Positions 6,737-63,660 of a stretch of DNA of 64,000 nt are shown here, one piece after another; position 1 is the first letter of the stretch, and each line of letters begins with the position of its first letter. The DNA lies in assembly GCA_019695265.1 (NCBI GenBank), contig JAIBAJ010000004.1, positions 402-64,401 on the forward strand, written 5' to 3'. The notes beneath the pieces were generated by a model. That model was not told where the DNA came from and did no database searches. It saw only the letters and a list, made by a program, of their open reading frames with translations. This DNA is from Bacteroidia bacterium (GTDB lineage: Bacteria; Bacteroidota; Bacteroidia; JAIBAJ01). The position numbers and the translations under genes were made by a program.

Positions 6737-7063
6737 GTTTTTTACAGTATGTATTATTGTAACAGTATAAATTTTTATCATTAGAAGATTAAATTTTATC
6801 CAATTTTTAGTATTAATTGTCTTATAATATTGAAATAGATTAAAGCGAGTTATATTTTTTGAAACAAAAAAGTTGATTCCGGAAGTATTGAATTGAAATT
6901 TCAATTTGCATTTTTTCCTCCGCCTAATGAATCAGCAGGAGGATGCTTTATTTCTTGAACCTGGTAATTTCTATACCTTTATTTAACCAAATAAAAATAC
7001 CCTGTCGTTTATCGAAACCTTATTGTGCTATTGGAGGTACAAGGTGGAAGTTTCCACCAATTT

Positions 7064-9808
7064 ATGAAAAAAATCTACTTCTTGTTTTGCCTGCTTTTTT
7101 CATTTCAAATGAGCTTTGCAGGATCAACCGACTTTGTAGCTCAAACAGTAATTGTAAAGGTAAAGCCTTTCTACCGAAAACAATGTAAACCCAATTCGGT
7201 TGAGGTGATGCGGGTGAAAAAAGTGTTATCTGAATTGCAGGTTAATCATACCCAATTACTTTTCCCTCAATTAAAAAACGTCGGTAAAGTTGATTTGAGT
7301 TTAGTTTATGAACTTCATTATCAAAGTGAACTAGATGCTCAAAAAGCTGCTGAATTGCTCATGCAAACCGGTATTTTCGAGTATGCCGAGCCTCGTTATA
7401 CTTCCATTCCTTTATATACCCCTAACGATGCCAATATTGCGAATCAAACTCATCATACCATCATTCATTCCTATGAAGGATGGGATTTGGAACAAGGCGA
7501 TACCAACATTGTAATCGGTATTACCGATACCAGTTTCGATATTCTTCACCCCGATTTGAGTGGTAATATCAAGTACAATTATGCTGACCCTGCCGGAAAT
7601 GGCGACAACGATGGCGATGGCTATACTGATAATTATTCAGGTTGGGATTTGGCCAACAACGATAATACCATGTACGTGAGTGGAAATTACCATGGAACCG
7701 GTGTAGCTACTTTTGCCGGTGCAACTACTAATAATGGAATCGGAGTTGCCGGTACCGGATTTAAATCGAAAGTAATGCTAATTAAAGTGGCTCCGGATGC
7801 TAATCAAAATTCCATTACTCATGGCTATGAAGGTATTGTTTATGCCGTAAATCATGGCTGTAAAGTGGTTAATTGCTCCTGGGGTAATACCACCTATAGC
7901 CAATTTGCTCAAGATGTAATTAACTATGCTACCTTCGATTTTGATGCCACCATCATCGCCTCTTCCGGTGATTCGGCGGGTGGAGTTACTAAATATTATC
8001 CTGCATCCTATGCTCATGTAATAAGTGTGGGTGGTACCGATAACAACGATTGTAATTTTTACCAAAACAACCATGCAGTTGATATCGTTGCTCCTTCGCT
8101 TAGCCTTTATGGAACCGCTTCAGTTGCGCCCGGTAATCCGGTTTATACCTCCAGCGGTGGAAACGGAACCTCTTTTTCTGCACCATTGGTTTCAGGTGCA
8201 GTAGCCTTGGTTCGTGCCCATTTCCCTGCCATGAATGCTCTTCAAGCCGCAGAACAAGTCATCGTGCATGCCGATAATATTTATGGATTAAGTTGCAACT
8301 CTGCTCTTACCGATCGCTTGGGGGTTGGTCGATTGAATATTTACCAAGCTCTCTTGGGTATGAATGAACCCTCGGTTCGTATGACAGATTTTCTTTTAGA
8401 TGCCTCTAATAACCAGGTTGCCATCGCAGGCCAATCCACTTCAATGGTTTGCGGGTTCACCAATTACCTGGCCAATGCTACCAATGTGGTGGTTACCTTA
8501 TCTACAACTGCCAGTTATATTTCTATTACACAAGGTGTTGCAGCTTTAGGCGATTTAAATACCTTACAAGCAACCACAAACGCGGCTACTCCGTTTTTGT
8601 TTACAGTCGCTGCCAACACTCCGCTCAACCAAAAAGTAGAATTTAAGCTCAGTTTTGTTGGCGATAATGGTTATACTGCTTACCAGTATTTTGAAGTAGA
8701 TGTAAACCGCGACTACATGAACATAGAAGTCAATAATTTGGCTACAACTGTTTGTACTCGCGGTAAAATTGGTTACAACACCCCTTATCAGCAAAGTGGT
8801 TTAGGAATTGCCTATAAGCCTTTGAACGATTCTTCTCAGGTATTTTTGAGCACATTTATGATTGGCAGTGCTGCCGGCAATGTTTCCGATATGGGTTATA
8901 GTGCAACTCCACCTGCTCCTGAATTTGATTTTCAGCCTGTTTCAAGAATAGTACGCACTACTACCAATGCCAGTGATTTTGATACTGAGGCCACCTTCAA
9001 CGACAATGGCGCAGGTGGAAATGCCTTGGGTGTTCAGGTGAAACAAATTAACCACGCCTGGGTAAGTGATCCCAACAAAGATTTTGTAATATGGGAATAC
9101 CATATCAAAAACAATAGTGCAAATACCCTCAACGATGTTTATGCCGGAATTTTTGCCGACTGGGAAGTTATGGGAACCAACAACAAAGCCGATTTCGATA
9201 TCAATCGCCAGTTGGCTTATGCTTATAATCCATCAACCCCGGATGTGTATATGGGTATAAAATTGCTGGAGCCTTCAGCCGGTAATTGCTACAATATTGA
9301 CGCCATTGCGGGCGGTAGCGGAGGCGTGGATATTTCTGATGGTTTTACCGGTGCAGAAAAGTACACCTCGCTTTCTACTTCCAGAAACCAGGCAGGCGGA
9401 ACTTCAGGAAATGATATTGCCCAGGTAATGAGCGCAGGTCCATTCGACTTAGCTCCCGGCGATTCGGTTAAAGTTTCCTTTGCTATTCTGGGCTCTTTAG
9501 ATTTGAATTCCTTACAGGTATCGGCCGATCAGGCTCAAACTGCCTACAATGGTATCGGTGTTTCAGCTCCTGTTTCCAAATATTCCAATAGCCTGAAATT
9601 GTTTCCAAATCCTGCTCATCAGTATGTAAATGTGTATGGCGATTTATCCGGAAAGGATATTCAGATTTTAGATGCCCTTGGCCGTACTCAGCACCTTGAT
9701 AAAACTACCATTGGCCCTCAGTTGGTTAAACTTTCTATTGCCGGCTTAACTCCCGGAGTTTATGTAGTTAAAGTCGGAAATGAAGTTCGCCGTTTAATAG
9801 TAGAATAA
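7064..9808 (+). CDS. S8 (subtilisin-family) serine peptidase with a T9SS type A CTD
   Basis: Catalytic blocks GITDTSFD (Asp), HGTGVATFAG (His) and GTSFSAPLVSGAVALV (Ser). Signal peptide MKKIYFLFCLLFSFQMSFA begins at the ATG at 7064. The C-terminus LKLFPNPAHQYVNV...GVYVVKV is a CTD. Confidence 0.85.
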   Translation: MKKIYFLFCLLFSFQMSFAGSTDFVAQTVIVKVKPFYRKQCKPNSVEVMRVKKVLSELQVNHTQLLFPQLKNVGKVDLSLVYELHYQSELDAQKAAELLMQTGIFEYAEPRYTSIPLYTPNDANIANQTHHTIIHSYEGWDLEQGDTNIVIGITDTSFDILHPDLSGNIKYNYADPAGNGDNDGDGYTDNYSGWDLANNDNTMYVSGNYHGTGVATFAGATTNNGIGVAGTGFKSKVMLIKVAPDANQNSITHGYEGIVYAVNHGCKVVNCSWGNTTYSQFAQDVINYATFDFDATIIASSGDSAGGVTKYYPASYAHVISVGGTDNNDCNFYQNNHAVDIVAPSLSLYGTASVAPGNPVYTSSGGNGTSFSAPLVSGAVALVRAHFPAMNALQAAEQVIVHADNIYGLSCNSALTDRLGVGRLNIYQALLGMNEPSVRMTDFLLDASNNQVAIAGQSTSMVCGFTNYLANATNVVVTLSTTASYISITQGVAALGDLNTLQATTNAATPFLFTVAANTPLNQKVEFKLSFVGDNGYTAYQYFEVDVNRDYMNIEVNNLATTVCTRGKIGYNTPYQQSGLGIAYKPLNDSSQVFLSTFMIGSAAGNVSDMGYSATPPAPEFDFQPVSRIVRTTTNASDFDTEATFNDNGAGGNALGVQVKQINHAWVSDPNKDFVIWEYHIKNNSANTLNDVYAGIFADWEVMGTNNKADFDINRQLAYAYNPSTPDVYMGIKLLEPSAGNCYNIDAIAGGSGGVDISDGFTGAEKYTSLSTSRNQAGGTSGNDIAQVMSAGPFDLAPGDSVKVSFAILGSLDLNSLQVSADQAQTAYNGIGVSAPVSKYSNSLKLFPNPAHQYVNVYGDLSGKDIQILDALGRTQHLDKTTIGPQLVKLSIAGLTPGVYVVKVGNEVRRLIVE

Positions 9809-9859
9809 GGGTTTAACACAGGTTTTAAGAGAAATTTCAGTCTCTTTTATATTATTTAT

Positions 9860-10013
9860 GCGGGCCGCTTTCGCCATCGGAGTGATTATTAGACTCAAAC
9901 AGTTTCAATAGGCGAAATCGCCGGGCTATCCACTTCAAGTCCTCGTCGCCGAAGGCCCCGAAAGTGTTCGGGACCTTCGGCTCCTGTGGGCTTTCCGTTA
10001 CTATCCCTGCCCG
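9860..10013 (+). repeat. GC-rich structured intergenic element, copy I-1 (type I)
   Basis: Conserved blocks GCGGGCC...GGGCTATCC...TCCTCGTCGCC...CTCCTGTGGGC...CTATCCCTGCCCG. Lies 3' of the S8 gene on the same strand. The core may extend about 15 nt further 3'. Confidence 0.9.
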
Positions 10014-10147
10014 AAGGGCCTGTGCATCCTAGAAGCTTGGTACCTAATCTAAATCAGTCAACTCCTTGTATTTACAAAATTGGTTTTTAAGGCTATGGTA
10101 AACTTCGATTAGTTTACAATCCAAGGACTTTAATTGGAAGTAACTGC

Positions 10148-10158: not shown

Positions 10159-11088
10159 ATGCCCTATCTGAAAGCCATTTTGATGTTTTTTGTCCTATTG
10201 CATGGTTTAATACCTGCTAATGCACAAAAGGGGGCGAGCTTATTAGATAAAACTGAACTGGGTTTTCAATTGGTTTATCAAAATAAATTTCGTTCAGCAG
10301 ATAGTTTGTTGCATCAAAATAAAATGCATCATCCACATCATTACCTCAACCATATTTTAGCCGCAAATATTTACTGGTGGAGGATTTTGTATGGTGAAAA
10401 ATCCGATAAACTCGATCAATTATTTACTTCCGAAGTTGACAGCGGAATGGCCTTGTTGGAGAAAATCGGAGTAGATCGTATGAACCATGAGCAATTGTTT
10501 TTGTATCTGAATTTGTATGGATTTCGTTCCAGGATTTATTTTAGGGAAAGATCCTATTTTAAGGCCATACAAACTTTCAGTGGAATTATGGGTTTGCTTA
10601 AAACCACCTTTGGTAAGGAACCTGAATTTGAACGATTTTACTTTACATCCGGCTTGTTTAATTTTTATACCGGTTCAGGAAGAGAGTATTCCAATGTAAT
10701 TAAAGCTGCATTGTTTGCTTTTCCGCCCAGTGATAAAATGAAAGGAATGGAGTACTTATATCGCCTTATTCATTCAAAGGATGTCATTATGAAGAATGAA
10801 AGTCGGTATTTTTTGCTTAAGATAAGTTTGGATCACATGAATAATTTCAAGGAATCGCTTCGGTTGTCTACTATGCTGGCAAAAGAATATCCAACCAATG
10901 CCTTGTATCAATATTATGTATTTAAGAACTTGGTAAAACTCAATCGGATGGAAGAAGCCAGAAAGGAATTGGCACATCTGGATTTGATTTTGATGGAGAA
11001 TCCAAGTATTAAGCCTGATTATATTAAATTTTGGAAAGGGAAAGCACAGGAAACATTGAAAAGGCATTACGAAGCTAGTGCTGATTAG
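10159..11088 (+). CDS. Secreted all-helical (TPR-like) hypothetical protein
   Basis: Signal peptide MPYLKAILMFFVLLHGLIPANAQ. The sequence is helix-rich. I chose the ATG at 10159 over the TTG at 10153. Confidence 0.55.
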   Translation: MPYLKAILMFFVLLHGLIPANAQKGASLLDKTELGFQLVYQNKFRSADSLLHQNKMHHPHHYLNHILAANIYWWRILYGEKSDKLDQLFTSEVDSGMALLEKIGVDRMNHEQLFLYLNLYGFRSRIYFRERSYFKAIQTFSGIMGLLKTTFGKEPEFERFYFTSGLFNFYTGSGREYSNVIKAALFAFPPSDKMKGMEYLYRLIHSKDVIMKNESRYFLLKISLDHMNNFKESLRLSTMLAKEYPTNALYQYYVFKNLVKLNRMEEARKELAHLDLILMENPSIKPDYIKFWKGKAQETLKRHYEASAD

Positions 11089-11332
11089 TAACAAGTTCGT
11101 TTTGGGATTAACATGGTTTCTTTAAGTGTCTCTAAAGAACCATTTTTCATTTTCATAATTTGGAAAGTATTATAGCCAAACACATTGGGAAAATTGGTCA
11201 TTGCAAAGTTGTAGGAAGTGGCAGAAATAAAAGATGTTCCAGGTAGGAATGATGTAAATTGCAGGGTAGTATTCGATTTGGAAGTTGAAATACGGAAGGT
11301 GGATTGTAGCACATCACTTGGGACGGAGCACC

Positions 11333-11479
11333 CGGGCAACGATAGAGCGTGATACCCCACAGGACTGTGCAGCGGTAGCGGAGCAGGCCGAGGAGTATTA
11401 GCGATAGCGTGACCCGAACGCACCTTATCAATAGTTGGGGGTAAGCAACTAGCTTTGGAGGTGCGGAAGGGGGCCCGCC
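11333..11479 (-). repeat. GC-rich structured intergenic element, copy II-1 (type II)
   Basis: The plus strand reads CGGGCAACGATAGAGCG...CCCCACAGGAC...CCGAGGAGTA...GCGATAGCGTGACCCGAACGC...GGGGGCCCGCC, the reverse complement of the element consensus. Lies 3' of fumC on the same (minus) strand. Confidence 0.9.
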
Positions 11480-11556
11480 AACTTTAGAAAAATAGGAATA
11501 AAAAAGCCGGATTTATTCTTAGTTAAACCCGGCTTTGGAAGGAAAATGGTCTCCTA

Positions 11557-12951
11557 TTATTTTGGGCCGATCATATCTTCAGGTCTTACCCATTGGGTGA
11601 ATTGCTCGTCGGTGAGCAAACCCAAGTCGATGGCAGCCTGGCGAAGAGTTTTGTTTTGTTTATGCGCTGTTTTGGCAATTTTAGCGGCATTTTCGTATCC
11701 AATATGCGGGTTAAGAGCCGTAACCAACATCAGAGAATTTTCCAAGTGTTTCTTAATAACTTCGTTATTTGCCTCAATTCCAACGGCACATTTATCATTG
11801 AATGAAACGCATGCATCGCCTATCAAACGGGCGCTTTGCAGTACATTGGCGGCGATGAGAGGTTTGAAAACGTTTAGTTCAAAATGACCTGTGGCGCCAC
11901 CTATAGAAACGGCTACATCATTTCCCATTACCTGGGCACAAACCATGGTCATGGCTTCGGGCTGTGTAGGATTTACTTTTCCGGGCATGATAGAGGATCC
12001 AGGCTCGTTGTCGGGGATAATAATTTCACCGATTCCGCTGCGTGGGCCTGAGCTTAACATACGGATATCGTTGGCGATTTTCATGAGGGAAACGGCAACT
12101 CTTTTCAATGCTCCGCTCAGTTCTACCATGGCATCGTGGGCGGCCAGGGCTTCGAATTTATTTGGGGCAGTAATGAACGGAAGGCCGGTGAATTCAGCGA
12201 TTTTTTGGGCAACCAAAACATCGTAACCTTTGGGGGCGTTTAGTCCGGTACCTACGGCGGTTCCACCTAGGGCCAGTTCACGAACAGCTTCCAGGGCGTT
12301 TTTAAGAGCACGTATACCATTGTTGATTTGTTGTACATATCCTGAAAACTCTTGTCCAAGGGTAAGAGGAGTTGCATCCATAAAATGGGTACGTCCAACT
12401 TTTACAATAGGTGCAAAGGCTTTAGCTTTGGCATCGAGGGTGTCGCGCAACAATTCCAAGCCCGGAATAGTAATCTCTACTACTTGTTTGTATGCTGCAA
12501 TATGCATAGCAGTAGGGTAGGTATCGTTGGAGCTTTGGGCTTTGTTTACATCATCGTTGGGGTGAAGTACTTTTTTATCGTCTAGTAAATTGCCACCTTG
12601 TACCACGTGGCCGCGGTTGGCGATTACTTCGTTGACATTCATATTGCTTTGTGTACCCGATCCGGTTTGCCAGATTACCAAAGGAAATTCGCCATCGAGG
12701 CTTCCGGTAAGGATTTCGTCGCAGACTTTAGAGATGAGGTCTCTTTTTTCGGCAGGGAGAATTCCAAGTTCGGTGTTTGCGTGGGCGGCCGCTTTTTTAA
12801 GGTAAGCAAAGGCGTAAATTACTTCCTTTGGCATGGAAGCTTCCGGACCAATTTTGAAGTTGTTTCGGCTACGTTCGGTTTGGGCTCCCCAGTATTTTTC
12901 GGCGGGTACTTTTACCTCGCCCATGGTATCGTGTTCGATTCTGAAACTCAT
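11557..12951 (-). CDS. fumC: Class II fumarate hydratase
   Basis: N-terminus [28 protein letters not shown] and signature [13 protein letters not shown]. 464 aa. Confidence 0.95.
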
Positions 12952-14607: not shown

Positions 14608-14615
14608 TACCTTTG
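14608..14615 (+). promoter_or_regulatory. -7 box (TACCTTTG) for SRP RNA
   Basis: Exact TAnnTTTG ending 5 nt before the predicted RNA 5' end. A TTTG at 14585-14588 sits at about -33. Confidence 0.65.
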
Positions 14616-14619
14616 CGCC

Positions 14620-14716
14620 GGGCAAGTCTTATACGACCAGCTCCTGGTGAACTCCCCCAGGTCAGGAATGAAGCAAGGGTATCCGGTTGTAGCGGTGCGA
14701 TGTAAGTAGCTTGCCC
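14620..14716 (+). ncRNA. ffs: Small (4.5S-type) signal recognition particle RNA
   Basis: Conserved domain IV sequence CCAGGTCAGGAATGAAGCAAGGG (compare CAGGUCnGGAAnGnAGCAG). The terminal helix GGGCAAG/CTTGCCC closes the molecule. A T-run follows at 14717-14722. Confidence 0.85.
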
Positions 14717-14720
14717 TTTT

Positions 14721-22642: not shown

Positions 22643-22723
22643 TGGTGGATAGGGGTTAAACCCCATAGGTTCTGCTGGAAAGTCAATTATATCGAATCAA
22701 TTATTTTTTAAAATACGAGTTAT

Positions 22724-22864
22724 GCGGGCCCCCTCCGCCCAACACTTGGTTGGCTAAACCCCAAGCAACTTGTCAGGGCGTTCGGGTCACGCTATCGGCT
22801 GTAGTCCAAGCCACTCCGCTAAACGCTGCGTTGGCTTGGAGCTACTTGCCTCTATCGTTGCCCG
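22724..22864 (+). repeat. GC-rich structured intergenic element, copy II-2 (type II)
   Basis: GCGGGCCCCCTCCGCCC...GGGCGTTCGGGTCACGCTATCGGCTGTAGTCC...GGAGCTACTTGCCTCTATCGTTGCCCG. Lies 3' of the VCBS gene on the same strand, between convergent genes. Confidence 0.9.
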
Positions 22865-34366: not shown

Positions 34367-34517
34367 GGCGGGTCCCCGGCAACCCTCCCCGGCTTTTTTA
34401 TTTTATTTCGAACGGATATTAACCGGGTTGCCGCGTCGGGCTATTCGTTCCTAGTCCTCGTCCCCCTAGGCTAACGCCGTCGGGGTCCTGTGGGCTATCC
34501 ACTGCTATCCCTACCCG
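34367..34517 (+). repeat. GC-rich structured intergenic element, copy I-2 (type I), left member of a head-to-head pair
   Basis: GGCGGGTCC-CGGCAACCC...GGGTTGCCG...GGGCTATTCG...TCCTCGTCCCC...GTCCTGTGGGCTATCC...CTATCCCTACCCG. Lies 3' of arfB on the same strand. Confidence 0.9.
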
Positions 34518-34605: not shown

Positions 34606-34746
34606 CGGGCAACGATAGAGCCAAATAACCCACAGGATACCGCAGCCTTAGCGGAGGTAGCCGAGGATTATGGGCGATAGCGTGACCTTTTCGCATGCAC
34701 AATGTCTGTTGGTTGAGATAAATTTTATAGCGAAAAGGGGCCCGCA
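34606..34746 (-). repeat. GC-rich structured intergenic element, copy II-3 (type II), right member of a head-to-head pair
   Basis: The plus strand reads CGGGCAACGATAGAGCC...CCCACAGGATACCGCAGCCTTAGCGGAGG...GGGCGATAGCGTGACCTTTTCGC...GCGAAAAGGGGCCCGCA. Confidence 0.9.
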
Positions 34747-40176: not shown

Positions 40177-40719
40177 TTAATGTATTAATGGCCAACGCCC
40201 GGCACTAAAAAAGTATTTGCTCCAATAAGGGTCATCAAGAGAGCTAACCATTACTCCCTGACTGGAGGAGGTATGAATAAACATTCTGTTTTGTAGAAAA
40301 ACACCAACATGCGTAATAACAGAGGATTTTACTTTAAAGAACACCAAATCCCCTTCTTCCAATTCGGAAGGAGTAACCCGATTGGTTTTTGGATAAATAT
40401 CTCTTGATCCACCTTGAAGTTTAACACCATAAGCTTTTTCATATAATTGTTTGGCAAAGCCTGAGCAATCAATTCCAAATTTAGAGGCCCCACCCATTTT
40501 GTGAGGAGTGGTAAGCCATTTAAAACTTTCCTGGTACAATTCAGGAGTTTTTATTTTGGTTAAATCGATACCATAAGAAGAAAAGTAGGAAGCAATGTAG
40601 GTAGTGTCTTGCTCGATAATAGAATTGATTTCGGAATATAGGCCTGAGTAGTCGGTAACGGTTTGGCCCAAGCTTACGAATGGTAAAAATACTGCTGTGA
40701 AAAGAAACGGTTTAAACAC
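40177..40719 (-). CDS. C40 (NlpC/P60) family peptidase
   Basis: GIDCSGFAKQLY (catalytic Cys) and ITHVGVFL (His). Signal peptide present. GTG start. Confidence 0.8.
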   Translation of the reverse strand: MFKPFLFTAVFLPFVSLGQTVTDYSGLYSEINSIIEQDTTYIASYFSSYGIDLTKIKTPELYQESFKWLTTPHKMGGASKFGIDCSGFAKQLYEKAYGVKLQGGSRDIYPKTNRVTPSELEEGDLVFFKVKSSVITHVGVFLQNRMFIHTSSSQGVMVSSLDDPYWSKYFFSAGRWPLIH

Positions 40720-40846
40720 GGCACTAAAATAAAGTAGCGAGTAGTAAGTCCGAAATTCTTAACTATTTTTTTGTCTAAAAAAGAGCTGTTGGATAAGGTT
40801 AGCTCAACCATATTTACAAAGATTAGTAGGTGTTAAAATTTTGTCC

Positions 40847-45621: not shown

Positions 45622-45757
45622 GCGGGTGCCTTCGCATTCACCTATTGCCTCTTTCTAAAATGTAGTAAGGCTCAGGCCCGGGCTATCGCTGTTACTCCTC
45701 GGTCCACTACGCTAAGGCTGCGTGGCCCTGTGGGGTAACTTGCTCTATCCCTACCCG
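45622..45757 (+). repeat. GC-rich structured intergenic element, copy I-3 (type I), left member of a head-to-head pair
   Basis: GCGGGTGCCTT...AAGGCTCAGGCCCGGGCTATCGCTGTTACTCCTCGGTCC...CGCTAAGGCTGCG...CCCTGTGGGGTAACTTGCTCTATCCCTACCCG. Lies 3' of the STAS gene on the same strand. Confidence 0.9.
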
Positions 45758-45861
45758 GACCCAAGCCCGAACTTTTGGGAAATGGATATACAATTTTGCT
45801 CATCCAGGGTGTTGGTGTGTTGATTACCCGGTCATTGCTGCAACTGTTTGGTTTTGCAGCC

Positions 45862-46005
45862 CGGGCAACGATAGAGGCGAGTAGCTCCCGGCAGAAATGG
45901 CTTCAGTGCGTTGGCAGCCGGGACTACAGACGATAGCGTGACCCGAAGCCCATTCCCAAAACTTATATATTTAAATAAATTTCAGTTGGGCGAAGGGGGC
46001 CCGCC
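45862..46005 (-). repeat. GC-rich structured intergenic element, copy II-4 (type II), right member of a head-to-head pair
   Basis: The plus strand reads CGGGCAACGATAGAGGCGAGTAGCTCCCGGC...GCCGGGACTACAGACGATAGCGTGACCCGAAGCCC...GGGCGAAGGGGGCCCGCC. Lies 3' of the minus-strand gene 46258..46677. Confidence 0.9.
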
Positions 46006-46203
46006 AAAAAACAAATGGAATAATTGGAAAGTTATACCGAATGTACATTATGTTTAGTCCAATTTTAGGTATTAATTTTTATTGAGAAAATTGGCCTAAC
46101 ATTCTGTATACTCGGCATTTACCAATCTAAATTTATAAAAGCCTTCGGACTATTTATAAATTAAAATTGGTATTAAATTTCTGTATTCCGGACCAACCGG
46201 TTC

Positions 46204-60354: not shown

Positions 60355-60508
60355 CGGGCAACGATAGAGCCAAGTAGCCCACAGGAGCCCGGCGCCCGAA
60401 TTTATTCGGGGCGGTGGGCGACGAGGACTACAGGCGATAGCGTGACCTGAACGCCTTGCACCAGGTTTAGGTAAAGATCAAAAGCCGCTTGGCGTGAAGG
60501 GGCCCGCC
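60355..60508 (-). repeat. GC-rich structured intergenic element, copy II-5 (type II)
   Basis: The plus strand reads CGGGCAACGATAGAGCCAAGTAGCCCACAGGAGCCC...GGGCGACGAGGACTACAGGCGATAGCGTGACCTGAACGCC...GGCGTGAAGGGGCCCGCC. Lies upstream of, and co-oriented with, the minus-strand OmpA gene. Confidence 0.9.
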
Positions 60509-60572
60509 AAATAAAACAACTCCCACCAACATTGGCAATAAATAACCACCTTTGTCGCAGAATTTTAAACAC

Positions 60573-61754
60573 ATGAGTTCAAGTTTTCTAACCCATCTTC
60601 AAAACGAATTACAATCGATTGAAACGGCAGGATTATTTAAAAGGGAGCGAATTATTACCGGTCCGCAAGGTGCTGATATTCAAATTAGTACAGGGCAAGA
60701 GGTAATAAATTTTTGTGCTAATAATTACCTTGGATTATCGTCTCATCCAAAAGTGTTGGAGGCCGCAGCAAAGACCCTTGAAACCCATGGTTATGGCATG
60801 AGTAGTGTTCGATTTATTTGCGGTACACAAGACATTCATAAAGAGTTGGAGGAAAAAATTTCTGACTTTTTGGGTTTGGAAGATACCATTTTGTATGCGG
60901 CAGCTTTTGATGCCAATGGAGGTGTTTTTGAACCTCTGTTTGGTGAGGAGGATGCCATTATAAGTGATGAGTTAAACCATGCCAGTATTATTGATGGAGT
61001 AAGGCTTTGTAAGGCTAAACGTTACCGATATAAAAACAATGATATGAACGATTTGGAAGCCCAACTTAAAGCGGCAGATGGAGCTCGTTTTAAAATTGTG
61101 GTTACCGACGGGGTATTTAGCATGGATGGATATATTGCTCAATTGGATAAAATAAGGGCTTTGGCCGATCGATACGGGGCTTTGGTGATGACAGATGAAT
61201 GTCATGCCCTGGGCTTTTTGGGTTCTACCGGACGAGGAACCCCGGAGCATTGTGGGGTACATGGTAAAATTGATATTGTTACCGGTACCTTAGGTAAGGC
61301 TTTGGGAGGAGCCATGGGAGGTTTTACTTCGGGTAAGAAAGAAGTTATAGCTTTATTGCGTCAGCGCAGTCGTCCATATTTATTTTCCAATTCTTTGGCA
61401 CCAGCCATAGTTGGAGCCAGCATTGCCGTGATGGATATGTTAAATGAAACTACGGCATTACGTGATAAAGTGATGGAAAACGCTTTGTATTTTAGAAAGG
61501 GAATGACGGAAGCAGGATTTGATATTAAGCCCGGAATTCATCCCATTACCCCGGTGATGTTATACGATGCCAAATTGGCTCAATCTTTTGCCGAAAAATT
61601 GTTGGCTGAAGGCATCTATGTCATTGGATTCTTTTATCCGGTGGTGCCGAAGGAGCAGGCCAGAATTCGGGTTCAGGTATCGGCAGCGCATGAAAAACAT
61701 CACCTGGATAAAGCCATTGCAGCATTTACTAAAGTTGGAAAGGAATTGTTATAA
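60573..61754 (+). CDS. kbl: Glycine C-acetyltransferase (2-amino-3-ketobutyrate CoA ligase)
   Basis: [25 protein letters not shown] and TLGKALGG (PLP Lys). I chose the ATG at 60573 over the TTG at 60552. Confidence 0.9.
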
Positions 61755-63424: not shown

Positions 63425-63525
63425 AGATACTATTCGAAGTTTATTTTTATATCCGTGGAATGGATTCCGTAGTCAATTGATTCGCAAATAGTTGCCAAGT
63501 CGGTTGTTAAAAAAATGTATTATTG

Positions 63526-63660
63526 GGCGGGCCCATCGCAGAAGTGGAGTGTTTCAAAAGAGCAGAAGCAAGGCGAATGGCCGGGCTATCGCCTGTACTC
63601 CTCGTCGCCCTTGGCTAGCGCCGCGGGCTCCTGTGGGGTACCTGGCTCTATCCCTGCCCG
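63526..63660 (+). repeat. GC-rich structured intergenic element, copy I-4 (type I)
   Basis: GGCGGGCCCATCGC...GCGAATGGCCGGGCTATCGCCTGTACTCCTCGTCGCCC...GGGCTCCTGTGGGGTACCTGGCTCTATCCCTGCCCG. I counted 87 G+C in 135 nt. Lies upstream of, and co-oriented with, the gene starting at 63904. Confidence 0.9.

Follow-up and report, generated by a model that had tools for sequence, protein, structure and literature searches.

E. coli REP/BIME elements bind gyrase and IHF. In Bacteroidota, the described family closest to the repeat analysed here is Flavo-1 (RF01705; PMC2864571), an Rfam entry since 2010 that is presumed to be a small RNA and has no assigned function. In the F. psychrophilum transcriptome, Flavo-1 hits lie sense or antisense to transcribed regions and many of them are untranscribed (PMC9723704). 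A long form with approximately 500 copies in a single genome gives enough statistics to ask what Flavo-1 is. We see about an even chance that this long form is a dispersed, structured DNA repeat of the REP/BIME kind, placed on a Flavo-1 branch, and that its orientation bias relative to genes arises from how and where copies settle.

The window is the whole 64,000-nt stretch of DNA that was analysed. A full copy of the GC-rich repeat (~145 nt) is located at positions 11333-11479 (G000:C158:11734-11880; covariance model, 128.8 bits). Two terms are used for its strands: the Flavo-1 strand reads from CGGGC to GCCCG, and the opposite strand, on which an earlier note on this DNA had described the element, reads from GCGGGCC to GCCCG (the GCGGGCC strand). 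Based on the covariance model match, alifold and pair counts, this copy is a type II core on the plus strand in the Flavo-1 orientation (minus in the GCGGGCC orientation). In its fold, a helix of 5 bp closes the structure, arm 1 is long and irregular and contains an AUAG/AUAG block together with a C.A position, and arm 2 is variable.

Nine copies lie within the window, two of them partial. The other type II copies are at 22722-22860 (minus, between convergent ORFs), 34606-34746 (plus), 45862-46005 (plus) and 60355-60508 (plus, 43 nt upstream of ORF 60552-61754). Type I copies are found at 9858-10012 (minus, 50 nt past the stop codon of ORF 7025-9808) and 63525-63660 (minus, a covariance model match). 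The two partial copies are both type I and on the minus strand: 34396-34517 is the head-to-head partner of 34606-34746, the right member of that pair, and 45664-45767 is the left member of a pair whose right member is 45862-46005. A second repeat family, AT-rich and ~150-190 nt in length, occupies 46011-46200, directly after the copy at 45862-46005. It has ~99 BLAST matches in this genome (80-99% identity), and the sister genome G002 has over 35 (79-89% identity); 38 matches are within 150 nt of a main GC-rich element. This AT-rich repeat at 46011-46200 has no Rfam match at the gathering threshold.

A search of the whole window at the Rfam gathering threshold found no family for the GC-rich repeat; the sole match was a Bacteroidales-type small SRP RNA at 14613-14720 (plus, 104 bits), an ordinary feature. 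The gathering threshold of Flavo-1 is 42 bits, and relaxed thresholds were also used. The best window copy is the type I copy at 9858-10012, with a match at 9915-10015 on the minus strand (30.3 bits), and a relative from Flavobacterium scores 25.8 bits, both below this threshold. The two matches are on the Flavo-1 strand, extend over the base of arm 1 and take in the C that faces A. The type II copy at 11333-11479 has no Flavo-1 match at E = 10 or below, and none was found for the copy at 60355-60508. By the gathering threshold, the repeat falls outside Flavo-1. The Flavo-1 hairpin is nevertheless present on the modelled strand, with the GAU(A/U)G ... G(A/G)A(A/U)AGC loop block and the GGAAA/CUUG stem. 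The distribution is also that of Flavo-1 (Bacteroidota and a few spirochaetes, several intergenic copies and no fixed neighbour). A core pattern scan identified more than 120 loci in Flavobacterium, Algibacter, Pedobacter, Mucilaginibacter, Chitinophagaceae, Cytophagaceae and one Spirochaetales MAG. The same Flavobacterium loci contain true Flavo-1 copies at other positions, and one locus (L064) is matched by the repeat model and also exceeds Rfam's Flavo-1 threshold. On these alignments, the element is best classified as a lengthened and multiplied relative of Flavo-1 that is a non-member by Rfam's test.

The base of arm 1 resembles Flavo-1 in detail: both have GGGAUAG ... GGAAAG CC / GG ACUUG ... 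GAUAGCCC with C facing A. The strand, the phylum and the occurrence of several intergenic copies with varied neighbours are also shared. Unlike Flavo-1, the repeat has the inner loop CCCACAG/CGAGGA instead of CCUUU/AAAG, an outer helix that closes the structure and an entire second arm, and it is present at ~500 copies per genome with mixed-type head-to-head pairs. Among the relatives searched, copy number is patchy: the congener G001 gave no matches, one genome of another family gave 35, and G002, also a congener, gave at least 77. A role tied to a fixed gene neighbour or to cis-regulation was rejected, as the neighbours elsewhere are unrelated housekeeping genes (DUF2383, GNAT, DUF4126, panB and purT).

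A genome profile built from seven window copies was used to search the repeat's own genome, a 3.83-Mb draft with 39% G+C. This profile search found 498 matches, 436 of them full length. All 498 are intergenic and none is within a gene (ORF-based gene map covering 87% of the genome). Copies favour the space downstream of genes: the 406 convergent spacers contain 167 copies, compared with 59 in the 422 divergent and 173 in the 1906 tandem ones. Many copies are at contig ends. For annotation, this means that copies break assemblies, as many contigs end in them, and that they can seed false ORFs. A 112-codon ORF at 11085-11423 (minus) begins within the copy at 11333-11479 and is most likely such an artefact of the GC-rich repeat.

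Adjacent copies are arranged head-to-head in 60 of 62 pairs, with the leaders facing each other whatever the gene context. Type I and type II are mixed in 43 of the 55 typed pairs (25 expected; p = 2e-6), and the spacers within pairs vary from 42 to 375 nt and are not conserved. An inverted partner at 300 nt or less was found for 92 of 385 copies (24%), even at relaxed thresholds. On this count, the idea that most singletons are hidden pairs with degenerate partners was rejected.

Each unit consists of a 35-60-nt leader and a core of ~145 nt. Identity in the leader rises with identity in the core (0.73 versus 0.38 at positions -12 to -1 and 0.51 versus 0.29 at -35 to -13), and identity in the A-rich tail has no correlation with it, which suggests that the leader is inherited with the core and the tail is not. 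In the copy at 11333-11479, the leader occupies 11298-11332 (plus) and is assigned to the element based on position frequencies and this relationship. Leaders are weakly conserved by position frequencies, with TTGG near -33, TTGGG near -14 and TTGCACCT at -8 to -1. The core is followed at 11480-11502 (plus) by an A-rich spacer, T-rich on the sense strand of the upstream gene and recognized by the enrichment of A-runs; further out than about +3, this sequence probably belongs to the flank or target and not to the element. At 11320-11340 and in the equivalent part of other type II copies, the leader word GTTGC could pair with GCAAC at core positions 4-8. This pairing would compete with the closing helix, and one type I copy (9858-10012) has a matching CCCT/AGGG alternative. 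A subfamily of ~48 copies (e.g. G000:C14 near 10365) has an extra conserved 5' extension of ~60 nt, with the word TAGATAC at -49 and TTGGGTTAGAAA near -30.

One strand of the core is folded by alifold into a three-way junction composed of the closing helix, the long irregular arm 1 and the variable arm 2. Arm 1 contains a block with two-fold symmetry, AUAG opposite AUAG, with A.G and G.A mismatches in all 431 full copies. There is a further A.G mismatch in 375 copies, and C faces A in 429 of 431 (Flavo-1 strand). The same three mismatches are invariant across all 52 short cross-phylum relatives. Types I and II differ by fully compensated pairs (AC/GT in type II, GG/CC in type I). In the 52 cross-phylum relatives, 237 cells are changed on both sides compared to 68.6 in shuffles, and none of 500 shuffles reached 237. 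When nearest-neighbour copies within the genome are compared, the differences amount to 4.1% of stem columns and 16.5% of non-stem columns, and 133 changes are compensatory. Because of these double-sided changes and the low divergence of stems, it is clear that the fold is real and under selection on a single strand. The earlier note had proposed single-strand function from a strand asymmetry, a T opposite a G in arm 2 of its fold. Both points hold: the T.G pair is present in 429 of 431 full copies and in 52 of 52 relatives, far beyond chance, and the abundant compensatory changes bear out function as a single strand.

The GATAG blocks are invariant in sequence, and not merely in pairing, in 431 of 431 full copies and 52 of 52 relatives. 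This could be expected if the element were a duplex or cruciform DNA site for a nucleoid protein, topoisomerase or similar protein, with the two direct GATAG boxes as contacts and the folding secondary, and the binding of gyrase and IHF by E. coli REP/BIME elements provides a parallel. The helices outside the boxes vary yet keep their pairing through hundreds of double-sided changes, none of which a duplex site needs, and this makes such a site a very improbable explanation.

The earlier note had taken the GCGGGCC strand as the functional one. The pair on which it relied, located between GTAG/CTAC and CC/GG, is C opposite A on the Flavo-1 strand and G.T on the GCGGGCC strand, and one invariant G.U is insufficient for this choice, as most of the other strand signals favour the opposite strand, for which Rfam's Flavo-1 model is built. 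Read on the GCGGGCC strand, the invariant A.G, G.A and A.G mismatches are of the pyrimidine-pyrimidine kind (C.U, U.C). The commonest stem variant, U84.G136 on the Flavo-1 strand (132 copies), would be A.C on the GCGGGCC strand. The Flavo-1 strand folds ~3.0 kcal/mol better on average, and is the better-folding strand in 76% of copies with RNA parameters and in 93% with DNA parameters. In the reliably aligned helices of the cross-phylum relatives (one misaligned helix left out), there are 21 G.U and 4 A.C pairs on the Flavo-1 strand. The 63 U.G pairs at 25:62 decide nothing on the strand, as they adjoin and mirror the C/A position. Among recent single-sided stem changes, the two directions are balanced (66 to G.U, 55 to A.C), so the strand call rests on older variants and thermodynamics. 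Against the Flavo-1 strand is the invariant C/A position itself, which is a clean G.U on the other strand. On balance, the folding strand appears to be the Flavo-1 strand, opposite to that of the earlier note, and we hold this with slightly more confidence than doubt.

A better-folding Flavo-1 strand would also be expected if copies were, or derived from, sRNA genes on that strand, often directed toward the end of a neighbouring gene and sharing its two-way terminator. The purine-purine mismatches and U.G variants suit an RNA read from the Flavo-1 strand, the 5' leader is inherited with the core, and in tandem spacers of other Bacteroidota the copies lean to the Flavo-1 orientation, co-oriented with the flanking genes (37 versus 21). 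To our knowledge, there is no precedent for ~500 near-redundant sRNA genes in a genome of 3.8 Mb, which counts against this origin. No Bacteroidota-type promoter box (TAnnTTTG) is found upstream on the Flavo-1 strand, where TTTG peaks are weak and confined to -15 and -9, and the core is followed on this strand by an A-run and not by a T-tract. Published data also show no consistent transcription of Flavo-1 (PMC9723704). An origin as sRNA genes is thus quite improbable, if a little less so than a duplex binding site.

The earlier note had counted eight of nine window copies with a co-oriented neighbour. This count is correct on the ORF map, but it says little by itself because each element has two neighbours and ~6.75 of 9 would be expected by chance. 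The genome-wide test of orientation relative to flanking genes that the note had suggested is positive and non-random. In the first 250 nt past a stop codon, the GCGGGCC orientation accounts for 305 copies and the opposite one for 105, at median distances from the stop codon of 55 nt and 122 nt, respectively. Singletons whose nearest gene end is a 3' end are in the GCGGGCC orientation in 165 cases and in the opposite one in 43 (79%, uncorrected distances), a bias which, at these uncorrected distances, exceeds the prediction from T-run asymmetry alone. Between 21 and 33% of 3'-proximal copies have the opposite ("wrong") orientation. In a leader-corrected test, the leader was counted as part of the element and singletons in convergent or divergent spacers were used. 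The tail (T-run) end was then directed at the nearest gene for 81 of the 121 singletons in convergent spacers (67%), compared with 23 of the 48 in divergent spacers (48%). A "gene-proximal end" rule at the 5' ends of genes was rejected, since the initial ratio of 57 to 26 became 23 to 25 after the correction for the leader and the restriction to divergent spacers. The co-orientation bias with upstream genes is real but moderate. A small sample from G002 has the same trend (9 to 3), and a 3'-end bias is absent from the short relatives in other Bacteroidota (30 to 25). Within pairs, a co-oriented gene is often missing for the second member. With replication in view, the ~75 listed positions in G002 were inspected by eye and showed only a weak regional strand bias.

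A T-rich run, missed by the earlier note, is found directly upstream of nearly every copy on the GCGGGCC strand. On the Flavo-1 strand, A-runs are enriched approximately ten-fold in the first 20 nt after the core. In element-free spacers, outward T-runs account for 60-63% of runs at the 3' ends of genes and for 46% at the 5' ends. A fixed polarity relative to T-runs therefore reproduces the orientation bias with no need for an RNA function. The element has no T-run after it on either strand; what comes after it on the Flavo-1 strand is A-runs, and on the GCGGGCC strand the T-run lies before it. On this basis, the element itself was rejected as an intrinsic terminator (a GC-rich hairpin followed by a T-run). 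The earlier note's observation that copies on the GCGGGCC strand have neither a TAnnTTTG box upstream nor a T-tract downstream was confirmed.

The gene upstream of the copy at 11333-11479 is located at 11557-12951 (minus, from the ORF list) and was identified as fumC by the earlier reader; gene names of this kind are that reader's, and only positions and strands were checked. Its DNA sequence is 84% identical to that of G002 and 79% identical to that of G001. The fumC stop codon (gene end 11557) is 77 nt from the element, and between them is a terminator-like site that the earlier note did not include: a 13-pair hairpin followed by a T-run at 11536-11503 (minus), which also precedes the element in G002. 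Downstream of fumC in G002 (L133:2210-2290), three to four tandem T/C-rich units of ~20 nt lie between the terminator and the element; these are absent from this genome.

Similar sites, consisting of a hairpin and a T-run, are present between the stop codon and the element in 33% of GCGGGCC-oriented copies, with a median of 16 nt from the end of the terminator hairpin to the element. A further 48% of GCGGGCC-oriented copies have no terminator-like site before or after them, and a quarter start 25 nt or less past the stop codon. Copies with no terminator before them, or starting this close to a stop codon, are likely transcribed with the upstream gene, judging by position. The earlier note's proposal that the element is part of mRNAs may therefore stand, on position, for perhaps half of the copies; it fails for the copy at 11333-11479, which is behind the fumC terminator.

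These transcribed copies are central to the alternative in which the element is an RNA on the GCGGGCC strand, serving as a 3'-UTR stabiliser or processing site with the invariant G.U as its recognition point. The ratio of 305 to 105 within 250 nt of stop codons is in keeping with such an RNA, as are the median distance of 55 nt with a quarter of copies at 25 nt or less, the 48% of copies that transcription would enter by position, the invariance of the G.U (429/431 and 52/52) and the 9 to 3 trend in G002. It is difficult to reconcile with the terminator in front of the copy at 11333-11479 and of a third of such copies, and with the quarter of 3'-proximal copies that are oppositely oriented. 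The 59 copies in divergent spacers, where singletons follow no orientation rule, the second members of pairs that often lack a co-oriented gene, and the unbiased short relatives (30 to 25) also argue against it. On the GCGGGCC strand, the fold would contain pyrimidine-pyrimidine mismatches and be weaker by ~3 kcal/mol, and Flavo-1 is not consistently transcribed in F. psychrophilum (PMC9723704). A 3'-UTR RNA is thus unlikely, though it is the less improbable of the two RNA explanations.

Three spacers are shared with G002 and filled in both genomes (coding DNA there ~70-84% identical). The G002 copies in these spacers resemble each other more than their positional partners in this genome, which suggests replacement or gene conversion. 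These alignments show that each genome turns over or homogenises its copies. The flanks gave no sign of a target-site duplication (longest shared flank word, mean 6.43 versus 6.42 in the shuffled control), a result that fits some mechanisms and proves none. No clean pair of an empty and a filled site was found in the comparison with relatives, so insertion is something that we infer and have not seen. At one spacer filled only in G002, the insertion point is unreadable because of ~1 kb of extra DNA. This divergent spacer is 200 nt long in the window (40640-40839) and ~1.25 kb in G002 (L139/L140), where it contains one copy and ~1 kb with open frames.

Y1 transposase genes were examined as candidate mobilisers. 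This genome encodes an intact IS200-like Y1 protein (G000:C60:11437-11973; L001:1399-1935, minus) with the motifs DHLH, WQ and YIENQKEHH, and a degenerate paralogue (G000:C24:3803-4339; L002) without the tyrosine motif. The signature of the intact gene, Y---Q--HH, is that of subclass 1.2, which has been described as not REP-associated (Quentin et al. 2018, PMC6006769). One Y1 gene of this genome has a copy of the repeat ~300 nt away on one side and none on the other, and the Y1 genes of G002, G030, G013 and G040 have no copy within 1.5 kb. The element-free congener G001 also has Y1 genes. A RAYT/Y1 protein as mobiliser is unsupported, as copies flank no Y1 gene in five genomes and G001 has Y1 genes without the element. 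No mobilising enzyme was found among the Y1 genes of these five genomes and G001. The supplement of Quentin et al. (PMC6006769) lists no REP resembling the repeat motif.

The behaviour of the repeat might be explained by the following sequence of events. Copies would spread, or be copied, as folded single strands by an enzyme, with the Flavo-1 strand, opposite to that of the earlier note, presumably being the better-folding one. They would settle with a fixed polarity beside T-runs, most commonly just past genes at the tails of terminators. This polarity of settling would produce the moderate co-orientation with upstream genes. Neighbouring mRNAs would include the element only where no terminator intervenes, and any effect on the RNA, such as the blocking of exonucleases, would be a by-product, as with REPs.

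This explanation may extend to the whole Flavo-1 superfamily, which would then be a Bacteroidota-wide counterpart of REP/REPIN and not a set of RNA genes: a ssDNA replicator with a three-way-junction unit, a non-RAYT enzyme, T-run/terminator polarity, mixed doublets, and AUAG/AUAG and C/A recognition points. We advance this extension tentatively, as a possibility with rather more against it than for it. If the reading of the repeat as a REP-like DNA element is right, Bacteroidota have a REP-like class of their own that is distinct in structure, the Rfam label "sRNA" would mislead for Flavo-1, and there would be a partner enzyme to look for.

Like Correia/NEMIS MITEs, the repeat is ~150 nt long, has hundreds of copies next to genes and is co-transcribed at some positions. 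Unlike these MITEs, it has no terminal inverted repeats past the 5-bp closing helix, and target-site duplication is at the control level, so that neither hallmark of a MITE is present. It also differs from REP elements in several respects. The unit is a three-way junction of ~145 nt and not a 20-40-nt hairpin. It is not a palindrome with a conserved GT[AG]G foot, the internal GTAG of this genome being GAAAG in relatives, and, unlike REP/REPIN systems with a RAYT, it flanks no cognate Y1 transposase gene. The likeness to REP/BIME/REPIN (PMC3116915, PMC6006769) is in number, place and arrangement: the repeat is high-copy, GC-rich, intergenic, structured and enriched downstream of genes. Its inverted doublets of two sequence types, its homogenisation within each genome and the co-transcription of some copies are also as in REP/BIME. 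The analogy to REP elements drawn in the earlier note is therefore apt, and the mixed pairs of type I and type II recall the alternation of Y and Z REPs in the BIMEs of E. coli.
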